The notes: a model not told the origin generated them from the letters alone. Counted from the first letter of the stretch, positions 26,152 to 40,641 are shown. The stretch: 64,000 nucleotides of DNA from an uncultured Spirochaetota bacterium (GCA_963820525.1 CAWGAA010000002.1:448001-512000), one strand, 5' to 3'. Numbers and translations are program-made.

Positions 26152-26337
26152 GCGTGAGCGGGCGCAGCGGAAAGCCCGGAGGCGCGCAATCACAGCGACC
26201 GAGGCCGACCGGGGTGTGACATTCCTCTGGATCTCCTACTGCGCCGAGGACTTGTAGCGGAGCACGCGACCCGCCCGAGGGCTGCCACGGAACAGGTGCC
26301 TCGGTTGAGAGTGAATCCCCTCGGGCGGGGTACGCCC
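26152..26337 (+). ncRNA. Structured element, copy 1 (resembles the Flavo-1 motif; may act as RNA or as ssDNA)
   Basis: GCGTGAG..GCGGAAAGCCC...GGACTTG.AGCGGAGCAC.CGACCC...GGGG[CT]ACGCCC shared with 40451-40641; perfect 12-bp stem 26270-26281/26318-26329. The family name is from recall of the Flavo-1 consensus. Confidence 0.6.
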
Positions 26338-26369
26338 AGAGCTTCATTTCTCACTCACCCCTTCCCCCG

Positions 26370-26939
26370 GGGAGCCTGACTGTGAGACAGACAAGTCGAG
26401 CAGGCGCGAAAGCGGGTCTTAGTGATCTGGCGGTGGTGAGTGGAAGCGCCGTCACTTAACGGATAAAAGGTACTCCGGGGATAACAGGCTGATCTTGCCC
26501 AAGAGTTCACATCGACGGCAAGGTTTGGCACCTCGATGTCGGCTCATCGCATCCTGGGGCTGGAGCAGGCCCCAAGGGTTTGGCTGTTCGCCAATTAAAG
26601 CGGTACGTGAGCTGGGTTCAGAACGTCGCGAGACAGTTCGGTCCCTATCTGCCATGGGCGTTGGTTGCTTGAGAGGAGCTGTTCCTAGTACGAGAGGACC
26701 GGAATGGACGAACCTCTGGTGTACCAGTTATCCTGCCAAGGGTAGGCGCTGGGTAGCCAGGTTCGGAAGGGATAACCGCTGAAAGCATCTAAGTGGGAAA
26801 CCCGCCTCAAGATGAAGCAACCCCGGGGGTCTCAACCCCCCTGAAGGTACCTGGGAGATAACCAGGTCGATAGGCTGGAGGTATACGCGGGGCAACCCGC
26901 TCAGCCTACCAGTACTAATTTACCGTGAGGCTTGACCAT
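26370..26939 (+). rRNA. rrl: 23S rRNA, 3'-terminal ~570-nt fragment only (part of domain V plus domain VI)
   Basis: GGGATAACAGGCTGAT, GGCACCTCGATGTCGGCTC, GAGCTGGGTTCAGAACGTCG, sarcin-ricin loop AGTACGAGAGGACC; upstream DNA is not rRNA. Confidence 0.95.
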
Positions 26940-27219
26940 ATTTTTGAGTATTCCCACCCGCGTCGGCGCGAAGCGCGACACGGGCAAGGCGTTTGGGCGT
27001 AAGCCCAAACGCGGAACCCGACAGCTGGTTCGCGAAGCGAAACAGCGGGAGGGCGCACACGAATGCCGCAGGCATTCGCGGAAAGGGGCCCCATGACGGC
27101 AGCAGCTGGAGCGCCGAAGGCGCGAAGCTGCGGGAGTCATGGGGAGTGCCAGCGGCTCAACACGCCGCAACGCGCCCTGAAGGCGCAAAATAATCCTTCA
27201 CCCCCTTCAGTCTATTATT

Positions 27220-27334
27220 GCCTGGTGACTATGGCGCAGGGGAACCACCCGTTCCCATTCCGAACACGGAAGTTAAGCCCTGCCGCGCCGATGGTACTGC
27301 CTTTTAGAGGTGGGAGAGTAGGTCGTTGCCAGGC
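27220..27334 (+). rRNA. rrf: 5S rRNA
   Basis: gcctggtgac...CCCGTTCCCATTCCGAACACGGAAGTTAAGC...GGGAGAGTAGG...gccaggc with paired ends, followed by a T run. Confidence 0.96.
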
Positions 27335-27360
27335 TTTTTTTATTTGCATGTGTGGCACTC

Positions 27361-37648: not shown

Positions 37649-37855
37649 ACCCCAACTCCTTCAAGTTGGCGTTTATCGCTGCATCCAGTTTCTTGGCCTG
37701 CGCCTGCTGTTCCTTGAGGGTTGCGGCCAGCCGCTTCATTTTCTTATCGAAGGGCTCGTCGTCTTCCTCCGCGGCCTCAGCGCCGACGTACCGGCCGGGG
37801 GTGAGTATGTGGCCATGCTTCCTGACGTCGTCTAGTGTAGTGCGTCACAAATCTA

Positions 37856-37884
37856 TTGACATATGTCTCGCTTCCTTGTATACT
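37856..37884 (+). promoter_or_regulatory. Near-consensus sigma70 promoter of the IS630 transposase
   Basis: TTGACA-17 bp-TATACT, 9 bp before ATG 37894. Confidence 0.7.
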
Positions 37885-37893
37885 ACCCTTGAA

Positions 37894-38961
37894 ATGAGCA
37901 GGAAAGCCCAAGCGATTATACTCTGCGAAGCCGAGCGCGGGACGCTGGACACGTGGAAACACAGTAGAAGTCTCCCTCACCGGCAGGTGATTCGCGCACA
38001 GATCATCACACGAGCGGCTGATGGCCAAGACAGTCAGGACATCGCCAGGGCTTTGCACGTGTCACGTCCCACGGTTCAGCTTTGGCGTCAGCGATTTCTC
38101 GCCCTGCGCGTGGAGGGTTTGCTGAAGGACGCGCCCCGGCCGGGAAGAAATCCCCGCATCTCAGCAGGAAAAATCAAGAAAGTGGTAGAGGCAACCTTGC
38201 ACAGTACTCCCGCAAACGCCACCCATTGGAGTACGCGGAGCATGGCCAGAGCACAGAAACTCTCCGAAGCCAGTATTCGCCGCATCTGGAAACAACACAA
38301 TCTCAAACCCCATCTGGTGGAAACGTTCAAACTCAGTCGTGATAAAAACTTCGTGGAGAAGCTGAAGGACGTAGTCGGACTGTATCTGAATCCACCGGAT
38401 AAGGCTCTTGTATTATGTGTGGATGAAAAGAGCCAGATTCAAGCGCTCGACCGAACCCAGCCGCTGTTGCCCATGCGGCCGGGTGTTCCAGCTCGTCAGT
38501 CGCACGACTATAAACGCAACGGCACGACAACGTTGTTCGCCGCTCTGAGCATGCTGGATGGACGGGTCATCGGTGATTGCATGCCACGGCATCGGCATCA
38601 GGAGTTCATCCGGTTTCTGAAAAAAATCGATGTCGAGACACCACCAGAATTGGAGCTTCACCTGATCGTGGACAACTACGGGACTCACAAACATGCTCGG
38701 GTGAAAGCATGGATTCAACGCCACCCCCGCTACCATCTGCATTTCATCCCGACGTCTAGTTCGTGGTTGAATATGGTCGAACGCTGGTTTCGTGAGATAA
38801 CCGATAAAAGAATTCGTCGTGGGACTTTCCCCAACGTCCAGACTCTGATTGCGGCTATTAAGCAGTACCTTGAGAATCACAATCAAAACCCGCAAGCCTT
38901 CGTCTGGAGTGCCCCGGTTGAGCGCATCCTCGCCAAAATCGCCAAATGTAAAGAAGCGTGA
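37894..38961 (+). CDS. IS630 family DDE transposase (355 aa)
   Basis: HTH, PRPGR, WSTRSMA, VDEKSQIQAL, IVDNYGTH, SSWLNMVERWF. Confidence 0.95.
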   Translation: MSRKAQAIILCEAERGTLDTWKHSRSLPHRQVIRAQIITRAADGQDSQDIARALHVSRPTVQLWRQRFLALRVEGLLKDAPRPGRNPRISAGKIKKVVEATLHSTPANATHWSTRSMARAQKLSEASIRRIWKQHNLKPHLVETFKLSRDKNFVEKLKDVVGLYLNPPDKALVLCVDEKSQIQALDRTQPLLPMRPGVPARQSHDYKRNGTTTLFAALSMLDGRVIGDCMPRHRHQEFIRFLKKIDVETPPELELHLIVDNYGTHKHARVKAWIQRHPRYHLHFIPTSSSWLNMVERWFREITDKRIRRGTFPNVQTLIAAIKQYLENHNQNPQAFVWSAPVERILAKIAKCKEA

Positions 38962-40450
38962 GACGCACTACACTAGTTTCACCGCGGCACAGAAGCCAGG
39001 CACGTCCTTGTACTTTTCTTTTGTACTCTTGTCCCCGCGCCAGGCATGATAGGCGCCGGCGATCTTTGCTATGTCCTCGTCGGTCAGCTCCCGATGCACT
39101 CGGTCGATCATCGTCCCCATCTTTCGGGCATCGATGAAAAGGATCTCACCGCGCCGATCGCGGAAGCGGTGGTTCTTTTTGTCGCGTGCAAGGAACCAGA
39201 GGCAAACGGGTATCTGCGTGGAGTAGAAAAGCTGCCCGGGCAGCGCGACCATGCAGTCGACCAAATCGGCCTCGATGATGTTTTTCCTGATTTCCCCCTC
39301 GCCAGATTGGTTGGAGGACATCGAGCCATTAGCCAGTACAAAGCCTGCGGTTCCATTTGGCGACAGGTGATGGATGAAATGCTGGACCCAGGCGAAGTTG
39401 GCATTCCCGGCAGGCGGCACGCCGAACTTCCACCGCTTGTCGTCCTTCAGTTGATCCCCCCGCCAATCGCTGTCGTTGAAGGGAGGATTCGCCATGACGA
39501 AGTCTGCCTTCAGATCCGGGTGCTGATCGTTGTGGAAGCTGTCTCCATGGGCGATCTGGGCGTCTATCCCGCGGATGGCGAGGTTCATCTTGGACAGTCG
39601 CCAAGTGGTATAGTTGGACTCTTGCCCGTAGATGGCGATGTCCCCGATGCGGCCGCTGTGCGCCTCTATGAACTTCTCGCTGTTGACGAACATGCCGCCG
39701 GATCCGCAACAGGGGTCATAGACTCTTCCTTTATATGGGGCAAGGATTTCGACAAGCACACGGACGACCCTTGAGGGCGTATAGAATTGGCCGCCCTTCT
39801 TGCCTTCGGCGCTTGCGAACTGGGAGAGGAAGTACTCGTAGACCCGACCGAGAATGTCTTTTGCCCTATCCGCGGGGCTACCTAGGCCGATGTCGCTGAC
39901 TAGGTTTATGATCTGGCCCAATCGGACCTTGTCCAATCCGGGGCGGGCGTATTCCTTCGGAAGCACACCTTTCAGCGAGGGATTGTCCCGCTCGATGGCG
40001 GTCATGGCATCGTCCACGAGTTTTCCTATGGTGGCCTGGGGGGCTTTCGCTTTCAACGTGGACCAGCGCGCCTCCTCCGGCACCCAGAAGATGTTCACCG
40101 CGCGGTATTCGTCGGGATCCTCGGGATCAGCTCCTTCTGCTTTTGCTGCGGTGAGTTTTTCGTGCTGGGATTCGAACGCATCGCTTATGTATTTGAGAAA
40201 GATAAGGCCGAGTAAAACGTGTTTATACTCAGCAGCGTCCATGTTGTTCCGGAGGGCATCCGCAGATGCCCAGAGCTTGGCTTCCAGCCCATTTGTGGCA
40301 GATTCGTCTTTCTTGGCAGCTTTTTTTGCCATTATGTCCTCGATGAGTGCCGTATCAAAGTGCTCTAAAGATAACCTCATTGTGATTACGTCGCAAGCCG
40401 CAGGAAGGTAAGTTCGTCATCAGAAGAAAATGAAGTCAGCCGATTCCAAT

Positions 40451-40641
40451 GCGTGAGGGGGCGAAGCGGAAAGCCCGGAGGCGCACCGCATAGGATAATG
40501 TTTTCACTTTTTAGGCGGAGCCGATACATAGTAAAGTGAAGTCATGCGCCGAGGACTTGCAGCGGAGCACCCGACCCCTCACCCTGGCGCAGAGACTGGC
40601 CTGAACAGTAAGAATCGGAAGCAGGGTGAGGGGGCACGCCC
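40451..40641 (+). ncRNA. Structured element, copy 2 (Flavo-1-like)
   Basis: Conserved blocks 32/34 and 31/33 identical to copy 1; a different-sequence perfect 12-bp stem at 40575-40586/40622-40633; inner ttcacttt/aaagtgaa stem. Confidence 0.6.

Follow-up and report, generated by a model that had tools for sequence, protein, structure and literature searches.

A Folded-DNA Relative of the Flavo-1 Motif as a Candidate Left End of an IS91-Family Element in a Spirochaete Family

Introduction

In the genome of an uncultured Spirochaetota bacterium, two copies of a structured element of about 190 nt stand 14 kb apart, one in front of a 23S rRNA gene that lacks its 5' part and the other in front of a similarly headless RHS gene. 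What the element is, and whether the genes between its copies were captured at it, is the question raised by the stretch of DNA analyzed here (GCA_963820525.1 CAWGAA010000002.1:448001-512000; 64,000 nt, hereafter the window). The element is called E and its two window copies are called copy 1 and copy 2. The initial annotation of this DNA saw in them a site for the capture of gene cassettes. We arrive at a different reading, in which E would be a folded-DNA repeat serving, on the terIS side, as the left end of a rolling-circle element of the IS91 family in this group of spirochaetes (a single family), and to which we assign a probability of roughly one half. The reading draws on direct observations: a family of copies, their common structure, a covariation free of wobble pairs, linkage to a transposase gene (tnpA), rRNA junctions shared between genomes, and one site that is filled in one genome and empty in another.

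A Family of Elements With One Fold

The two window copies were scored with R1, a covariance model built from the copies of the source genome (four contigs, 5.05 Mb) and used to search its relatives.

26152..26337, + strand: E copy 1, 186 nt, 171 bits with R1
40451..40641, + strand: E copy 2, 191 nt, 170 bits with R1

The initial annotation had described them as covarying copies with shared blocks, different 12-bp stems and a compensatory change in the core, and both the alignment and the consensus fold confirm this description. In the alignment, block A (GCGTGAG...GGAGGCGC) is identical at 32 of 34 positions and block B (TGCGCC...CGACCC) at 31 of 33, both copies end in GGGG[T/C]ACGCCC, and the stretches separating the two blocks are unrelated. 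Each copy contains a perfect 12-bp stem, cccgcccgaggg/ccctcgggcggg in copy 1 (26270-26281/26317-26328) and cccctcaccctg/cagggtgagggg in copy 2 (40575-40586/40622-40633), and the swap from C-G to G-C between the copies is the pair at alignment columns 8/126.

Four distinct copies of the source genome fold with RNAalifold into a three-way junction. Its closing stem, P1, unites both ends through 5 bp (GCGTG with YACGC); P2 is a long irregular helix in which short helices alternate with 3-nt symmetric loops and which has conserved GAAGCGGAAA-type internal loops; P3 is a variable GC-rich hairpin 8 nt from the 3' boundary, and the tail reads GYACGCCC. For copy 1 this places P1 at 26152-26156 with 26331-26335, P2 in block A (26158-26185) paired to block B (~26252-26278), P3 at the 12-bp stem and the tail at GGGGTACGCCC. 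Copy 2 has P1 at 40451-40455 with 40635-40639 and P3 likewise at its 12-bp stem; the P2 half-sites of the window copies are GCAGCGGAAAGCCC and CTTGTAGCGGAGCAC.

That structure rather than sequence is conserved, as had been proposed, is borne out by pair counts in two alignments, both of which were fitted to the model and hence are biased towards it. Among 33 family members, standard pairs fill 96.3% of 873 pair cells, compared with 85.3% after shuffling; both sides have changed in 21 of 30 pairs, and none of 500 shuffles comes up to this. Among 18 compact members from other genera (~98 nt), the fraction is 98.8% of 520 cells, with changes on both sides again at 21 of 30 pairs and one-sided changes in just 1-2 cells. 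When the partners are slid by 1-3 columns, pairing falls to 30-48%. The conserved signal in E exceeds chance.

The source genome holds five full copies (146-176 bits with R1) in addition to degenerate pieces: the two in the window, one on contig C3 and two on contig C1 at ~70-74% identity. The C3 copy (C3:328850-329035) is 100% identical to copy 1, and the upstream flanks of these two part exactly at the first base of E. Of 61 related genomes, 26 have matches to R1, up to 36 in a single one (G039), and within the same family the share is 22 of 24; in a sample drawn across the class it is 16 of 151 genomes. Most copies are solo, both window copies included. In several subfamilies conserved sequence reaches 15-50 nt past the terminal ACGCCC, which makes E the structured core within a unit that is somewhat longer.

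Evidence for mobility comes from a pair of congeneric genomes. An insert of ~496 nt with two oppositely oriented elements splits two genes in G180, whose orthologues are contiguous in G113. Two further candidates were set aside. A second G180 locus was uninformative as a filled/empty comparison, and the sigma-factor locus of G009 was rejected as an empty site, its right flank being kept in three genomes, its left differing in all, and the break lying inside a hairpin. That hairpin is a palindrome, CTGCCGGGG ACTGA CCCCGGCAG, which stands upstream of a conserved sigma-factor gene in G014, G011 and G016 (L098-L100); in G009 (L097) a segment ending in E is joined inside it, and no two of the four genomes agree in their upstream DNA. 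Compact elements of G180 (L110-L119, L128-L132) are bordered 5' by GCCGCTGG(N)GC and 3' by ATGAGAAATTTTTT(A)GCCGCTAC, and one of them (L128) has the decamer GTTAGCCGCT on both sides. The Rfam model of Flavo-1, discussed below, also begins with UAGCC.

Relation to Flavo-1

Flavo-1 (RF01705), which the core of E had called to mind at the outset, is also present in some spirochaetes. The motif is listed for Bacteroidetes only in the table of its first description (Weinberg et al., 2010; PMC2864571), is filed in Rfam as an sRNA to which no function has been assigned since 2010, and is counted among the most abundant "small RNA" families of that database (PMC9029176). The proposed resemblance stands in part. 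It fails as a direct match: the Rfam search returned no Flavo-1 hit on either window copy at an E-value of 10 or below, and the whole source genome has no RF01705 match above the gathering cut-off of 42 bits, its best score being 21.6 bits at a place other than the window copies. It holds through intermediates. Compact, AT-richer relatives, which R1 finds at 53-90 bits, reach 26.8-37.5 bits with RF01705, below the cut-off, in 13 of 15 sources, and the cmscan alignment of one of them maps the 76-nt model, which covers P2 plus the upstream UAGCC, onto P2.

The same layout appears from the other direction, in canonical Flavo-1 copies above the cut-off. Two genomes of one genus (g68) carry at least 150 and at least 138 of these, many at contig ends. 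Fourteen of 20 such copies fit a regular expression for the P1/P2/P3 layout and tail, and the other six did not. By eye, P1 is perfect (GCGCA/TGCGC, GCGCC/GGCGC or GCGCG/CGCGC) in eight of the ten whose 3' side is readable; all 14 fitting copies open a P3 hairpin after P2, and a GCGC(C/A) tail follows where the sequence extends that far. Since canonical copies share this layout, the Flavo-1 of Rfam is the middle helix of a larger element.

E is an expanded GC-rich relative of Flavo-1. Its P2 corresponds to the Flavo-1 helix, with half-sites GAUUGAAGCGGAAA / UUGNAGCGGAAAGCC paired across symmetric internal loops, and E thus has the irregular helix by which Flavo-1 is recognized, where two half-sites of the AGCGGAAA type pair around such loops; the canonical copies in turn have a P1 that covaries, the P3 hairpin and a tail reading GCGCCC. 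The window copies differ in being GC-rich, in a ~60-nt expansion at the tip of P2, in a P3 loop of 35-40 nt, in having twice the length of the model, and in escaping detection by RF01705.

Other identities for E were considered and rejected. No Rfam or ARAGORN match for a group II intron, tRNA or tmRNA attachment site falls on it, and it is not a part of 23S rRNA, as the large subunit (LSU) rRNA model spans it only with large gaps and intact 23S genes lack it.

DNA or RNA

Given its kinship to an Rfam sRNA family and its strong covariation, E might be a structured non-coding RNA that acts in trans or as an element of untranslated regions. Two other facts favor this: units in which E is fused to a 5S fragment finish in the T-run of the 5S terminator, and a long-read transcriptome of Leptospira has Flavo-1 among unannotated transcribed regions (bioRxiv 10.1101/2023.03.29.534852). 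However, Watson-Crick pairs fill almost every pair cell of the alignments. G·T wobbles occupy 9 of 873 and 2 of 571, a level not above that of A·C mismatches (5 and 4); G·U pairing is virtually missing, and there is no strand asymmetry. The genes adjoining 20 G039 copies show no preferred orientation either, with (+,+) 6 times, (-,-) 9, (+,-) 3 and (-,+) 2. In addition, elements in numbers of 100 or more break assemblies, the variable regions of different copies are unrelated, and in a flavobacterial transcriptome Flavo-1 matches are sense or antisense to transcripts or fall in untranscribed DNA (PMC9723704). We therefore regard an RNA function as improbable. From the near absence of wobbles it follows that E likely works at the DNA level, in agreement with the DNA-level site that was first proposed.

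The Link to an IS91-Type Transposase

IS91 has its terIS end upstream of tnpA, with a GC-rich subterminal palindrome; its bottom strand is the functional intermediate, and termination often fails, so that DNA beside the left end is mobilised (PMC13181058, PMC3189936). A corresponding arrangement recurs around E. In the eight loci listed here, a gene with Zn_Tnp_IS91 and Y2_Tnp domains, which encodes an HUH transposase of the Y2 type, has E immediately upstream in antisense orientation, on the terIS side.

Source genome, contig C3
L043
L054
L058
L070
L096
L144
G004:C96 (weak case)

The co-occurrence of an HUH recombinase with the element, raised by the initial annotation, is thus found in the form of an IS91-family enzyme. 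In the recurrent layout tnpA is antisense and E lies 40-130 nt from its start. Looking outward from E, a transposase is found within 1.5 kb in 4 of 48 loci; looking outward from the enzyme, 6 of 79 loci fetched from species genomes by TnpA similarity have an R1 match, and in all six E occupies the opposite strand, its end 102-170 nt ahead of TnpA residue 20. The linker between E and tnpA differs between TnpA subclades and E is kept, for which reason E is read as the element's own left end and not as its target. The + strand of E moreover has the polarity of the strand that IS91 transfers, with the ori end 5', tnpA antisense and E at the 3' end.

On C3 the DNA past the 5' end of E encodes, on the other strand, the N-terminus of a Zn_Tnp_IS91/Y2_Tnp protein, whose gene resumes 5.6 kb away. 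The interruption consists of nested insertion sequences (ISs; L035 7150-13900, that is C3:329150-335900), the IS91-type tnpA being split by an IS110-family gene and this in turn by a DDE_Tnp_1_4 (IS4-like) gene. The IS110 gene near the C3 copy is accordingly an insertion within tnpA, and an IS110 bridge RNA was rejected as an identity for E.

The opposite, ori-side end of the element is a conserved block ending in GCCTATCAT, ~235 nt after the tnpA stop codon, right after which the flanks diverge; the block is common to two copies of the source genome and to G010. Downstream of one rrn operon, at 0.3-0.5 kb, stands a derivative with a deletion, in which this ori end is joined to block B of E at a CCTTGTA microhomology. 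A miniature IS made of an ori end and a ter end was tried as an account of E and dropped, as the 5' part of E is unlike the ori end and no second E stands at the ori side. The window has no match to a 29-nt pattern of the ori block at three or fewer mismatches, and one chance-level GCCTATCAT inside hsdM.

Three genes on contig C2 (C2:44853, C2:57185, C2:65483) belong to a second clade of IS91-type transposases, which shows 48-50% identity to the clade linked to E. None of the three has E, and at least two have a common upstream leader of ~110 nt.

As to mechanism, the junction formed on single-stranded DNA would offer its 3' boundary to the HUH transposase for cleavage and joining. Where termination was missed or imprecise, DNA past that boundary would be carried along by one-ended transposition. 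The recognition of single-stranded DNA by the transposase, the exact point of cleavage and the way in which solo copies spread are steps that we infer.

Ribosomal RNA Fragments as Passengers

What follows copy 1 in the window is rRNA sequence, arranged in this way.

26338..26369, + strand: non-rRNA spacer between E and the 23S fragment, ~32-38 nt, in part shared with this junction as it occurs in other genomes
26370..26939, + strand: 3' part of a 23S rRNA gene (bacterial LSU model, ~2369 to 2925), a passenger tied to E
27221..27334, + strand: 5S rRNA gene, then a T-run; the unit shared with C3 ends here

Copy 1 does end shortly before a headless 23S gene, as first described: homology to intact genes begins at ~26370-26376, 33-39 nt after the copy, and runs to the 3' end of 23S (LSU model, BLAST), the fragment being 98.45% identical to intact 23S over 646 nt. 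The headless gene is not a local truncation, as is seen from a second copy in the source genome and from the same junction in three other genomes. Copy 1 and the C3 copy share E, spacer, 23S fragment and 5S up to the T-run after 5S and then diverge. The junction of E, spacer and 23S fragment is the same in the window, on C3 and in L043, L044 and L062; the distal ends differ, and in L043 the 23S fragment is decayed and shorter. Its presence in other genomes means that the rRNA pieces are long-standing passengers rather than the result of local breakage. In six loci of six genomes E is instead fused to 5S from one and the same position, with ACGCCC followed directly by AACACGGAAG..., and these units finish at the 3' end of 5S and its T-run. 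Copy 1 thus belongs to a traveling unit of E, 23S fragment and 5S. Missed termination would explain both kinds of unit.

The exact end of E bears on these junctions. The bases after ACGCCC are AAC in 8 of 32 copies; this is compatible with an end of the GTT(G/C) type on the opposite strand and fixes neither a cleavage site nor a target. GAAC is a known target type of the IS91 family, and if the end of E includes AAC, the 5S junction would represent a site just 3' of GAAC.

A wholly different origin for such junctions, including the one between E and RHS, is that they are retro-chimeras, formed when a reverse transcriptase (RT), having copied the 3' portion of some abundant RNA, jumped to an E RNA as its next template. 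This would account for a full-length E fused 5' to a 5'-truncated 23S with 5S, to 5S or to an mRNA, and for units that stop at transcript 3' ends. However, the identical junctions recur across genomes, which indicates one event and subsequent spread; no RT is linked to E, a single group II intron RT being found among the flanks of 26 E-centred loci in relatives; and pairing without wobbles speaks against selection at an RNA stage. We consider this origin hardly credible.

E-related copies also lie near complete rrn operons in the source genome. Four of them stand 0.3-21 kb downstream of three operons, in the same orientation as these.

C3:349447-349722: E-related copy downstream of an rrn operon
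C3:328850-329035: E-related copy downstream of an rrn operon
C1:3192933-3193115: E-related copy downstream of an rrn operon
C1:1016348-1016487: E-related copy downstream of an rrn operon

A circle with the 23S fragment and 5S could integrate at these copies by homologous recombination. Campbell-type integration through the homology of 23S fragment and 5S was not retained, as it fits the C3 layout (rrn operon, 21 kb, then E, 23S fragment and 5S) and not the window. Stray 5S or 5S-like genes outside rrn operons were seen in the source genome at L035 4927-5032 (65.4 bits), L039 4243-4349 (44.5 bits) and L040 3333-3446 (92.5 bits), the one at L039 being directly preceded by a degenerate E (28.6 bits with R1).

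How Firmly Is E Tied to the IS91 Family?

Several observations weigh against E being the end of an IS91-family element, and most concern the looseness of its tie to the transposase. G039, with its 36 matches, has a single 35-residue scrap of Y2_Tnp, and in g68, where at least 138-150 canonical Flavo-1 copies are found per genome, Y2_Tnp occurs in none of four genomes (assemblies 60-93% complete). A TnpA relative at an E-value of at most 1e-20 is missing from 9 of 26 genomes that have E and present in 14 of 35 that do not. In the reverse direction, 73 of the 79 TnpA loci are without an R1 match, and 16 of those 73, Bacteroidota included, are without Flavo-1 by Rfam. Other points concern the ends. 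Solo copies have a sharp inner (5') boundary, at which one-ended transposition would have kept the ori end, and the 5' end of E is unlike that end; variable sequence of 15-50 nt often follows ACGCCC; and neither a cleavage tetranucleotide of the CTCG/GTTC type nor a distal pseudo-ter was identified at the boundaries of E. The window itself contains neither tnpA nor the ori block, as judged from the open reading frames (ORFs) scanned and a pattern search. Within one genome the variable regions of the copies are unrelated and the subfamilies are mosaic, which does not resemble a recent burst of MITEs (miniature transposable elements with inverted repeats). Finally, folding of single sequences as DNA is weak evidence, with z = -2.37 for copy 2 and z = -0.07 for copy 1, which folds no better than its shuffles.

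These points leave room for E, and Flavo-1 with it, to be an independent folded-DNA repeat of a kind similar to repetitive extragenic palindromic (REP) sequences or MITEs, kept or spread by another enzyme (for example a Y1 HUH transposase of the REP-associated tyrosine transposase, or RAYT, type) or by the host, with one IS91 subclade inserting site-specifically at its 5' boundary or having co-opted it as an end. Copies without Y2_Tnp, TnpA loci without E and the sharp inner boundary keep this explanation alive, and both boundaries of solo copies are in fact sharp. Furthermore, Y1_Tnp genes lie at contig edges in three of the four g68 genomes, and one of four Y1 loci has a Flavo-1 element ~120 nt upstream. 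Another Y1 locus (L218), however, is an ordinary IS200-like element with hairpins of its own and no Flavo-1 core, and two more lack the core as well. No conserved IS terminus is seen between E and tnpA, and E is kept across TnpA subclades of 56-81% identity. On this evidence we think an independent repeat rather unlikely, and retain E as the candidate left end of an IS91-family element.

The RHS Genes and the 14-kb Interval

The genes around and between the two copies are as follows.

14749..25041, + strand: full-length RHS gene, 3430 aa
25053..25601, + strand: 182-aa ORF after the RHS gene, no Pfam family
25680..26126, no strand assigned: non-coding repeat 5' of copy 1, not part of E; 76% copy at C1:1362264-1362729
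27361-28827, - strand: 488-aa ORF, no Pfam family
28815-33191, - strand: NACHT ATPase, 1458 aa
33302-36406, - strand: hsdR
36407-37648, - strand: hsdS
37516-38961, + strand: IS630-like (DDE_3) transposase
38968-40380, - strand: hsdM
40652..42667, + strand: orphan RHS module, a core remnant with a divergent C-terminal tip, by protein homology
42664..43341, + strand: small gene after the orphan RHS, Trep_dent_lipo domain

The headless RHS gene does begin 10 nt after copy 2, as had been reported: its homology starts at residue 37 of the ORF at 40544-42667, that is at nt 40652, and it is 93% identical over 472 aa to residues 2768-3239 of the main RHS protein. It is an ordinary orphan module, which copy 2 abuts. 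The ORF at 25053..25601 would by its position be an immunity gene, and the small gene at 42664..43341 likewise a cognate immunity or lipoprotein gene.

The initial annotation regarded the 14 kb between the copies as a captured cargo, which would make E an attC-like cassette site of a tyrosine recombinase and the two copies the limits of the captured block. In keeping with such a site, structure rather than sequence is maintained, and in one family of relatives (f1) copies are common in islands rich in defence and toxin-antitoxin (TA) genes, often several in the same orientation, adjacent copies being usually co-oriented. Against it, scattering over ordinary intergenic regions, the pattern named in advance as speaking against capture, is what one genome shows: all 20 G039 copies examined are single and lie between housekeeping genes. 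Moreover, the 23S fragment and 5S travel with E. No integrase is encoded by the 12 ORFs scanned between 25.0 and 48.1 kb, and no GTTRRRY/RYYYAAC core is visible by eye at the boundaries. Clusters of copies (L094-L096) are irregularly spaced with several genes between them, and R1 finds no copy in the arrays on C2:1-70000. An attC-like site is for these reasons very unlikely.

The 14 kb between the copies is defence-island DNA, and its movement as a unit is unsupported. Its genes (27361..40380) have no paralogue elsewhere in the source genome, and the window ORFs scanned include no transposase, ori end or integrase of the E system. A conserved 14-kb block was also looked for and rejected: G018 has NACHT and type I restriction-modification genes between E copies, the proteins being distant and the order different.

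Some local features may be added. The 488-aa ORF shares 13 nt with the end of the NACHT ATPase gene and is probably its operon partner. Within the type I restriction system, the IS630-family ORF sits between hsdS and hsdM and overlaps the start of hsdS by ~130 nt. The orphan RHS pair is closely followed, on the minus strand, by an IS4-like DDE_Tnp_1 transposase gene (43836-45551). The repeat in front of copy 1 is GC-rich and ~450 nt long, with shorter pieces on C1 and C3; the two long ORFs across it are unlike real proteins, and it has no Rfam family.

Comparison With Known Systems

The closest parallel is the terIS of the IS91 family (IS91, IS801, IS1294 and their ISCR relatives). E shares with it the place upstream of a Zn-finger/Y2 HUH tnpA, a GC-rich subterminal hairpin near the outer boundary, a polarity that fits the transferred bottom strand, and DNA past its end that travels along, as in one-ended transposition (PMC13181058, PMC3189936). 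It differs in being a three-way junction of ~190 nt rather than a single short palindrome, whereas 89 bp of the left end suffice for IS91, in that no CTCG/GTTC cleavage site was identified in it, and in solo copies with a sharp inner boundary that far outnumber the transposase genes.

Dispersed intergenic repeats that fold as DNA, show compensatory changes and are tied to an HUH enzyme are also known from the REP/REPIN sequences with their RAYT and from the palindrome-associated transposable elements (PATEs) of IS200/IS605. E is likewise a dispersed folded repeat with an HUH link and a structure kept by compensatory change. The enzyme linked to it, in contrast to the REP/REPIN system, is a multi-copy Y2 transposase of the IS type and not a single-copy Y1 RAYT, and E is larger and branched.

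Integron attC sites are similar in being folded single-strand sites whose structure is conserved above sequence. The boundaries of E read GCGTGAG... and ...GYACGCCC in all copies compared, and attC-type R and L boxes are absent from them as judged by eye; in addition, no IntI adjoins E, no regular cassette array is formed, and the copies are scattered singly.

Helitrons, the rolling-circle elements of eukaryotes, have a GC hairpin on the transferred strand, a few nucleotides before its 3' terminus, and they capture downstream DNA by bypass of the terminator. Both traits have counterparts in E, which differs in being bacterial, in the architecture of its transposase and in its much larger structured end.

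What the Element Means

E is an expanded variant of the orphan Flavo-1 motif, and its link to a rolling-circle transposon is the first such tie as far as the literature that we found shows; the passages on Flavo-1 in that literature make no connection with mobile DNA. A broader view, which we hold only tentatively and which is on balance doubtful, would make Flavo-1 in general the core of a folded single-stranded DNA module of HUH rolling-circle transposons and their miniatures and not an RNA gene. In these spirochaetes it would be the terminator end of an IS91-type element, read-through carrying flanking DNA that includes rRNA fragments as portable homology, and the 14-kb block of restriction and NACHT genes would reflect a transfer that passed copy 1 without terminating and terminated at copy 2.

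Three lines of evidence give this very abundant motif, so far an orphan, a mechanism that can be tested, namely that the motif is only the middle helix of a larger, wobble-free three-way junction, that it is present or absent between congeners, and that in one lineage it stands at an IS91-type end. It suggests that many "sRNA" annotations would be transposon ends. The IS91 family, for its part, would gain an unusually elaborate left end, and the units of E with 23S fragment and 5S, or with a 5S fragment, look like a natural IS91-type mobilisation of flanking rRNA fragments outside the context of antibiotic resistance. In annotation, stray partial rRNA genes beside such elements would then be read as passengers and not as broken operons.

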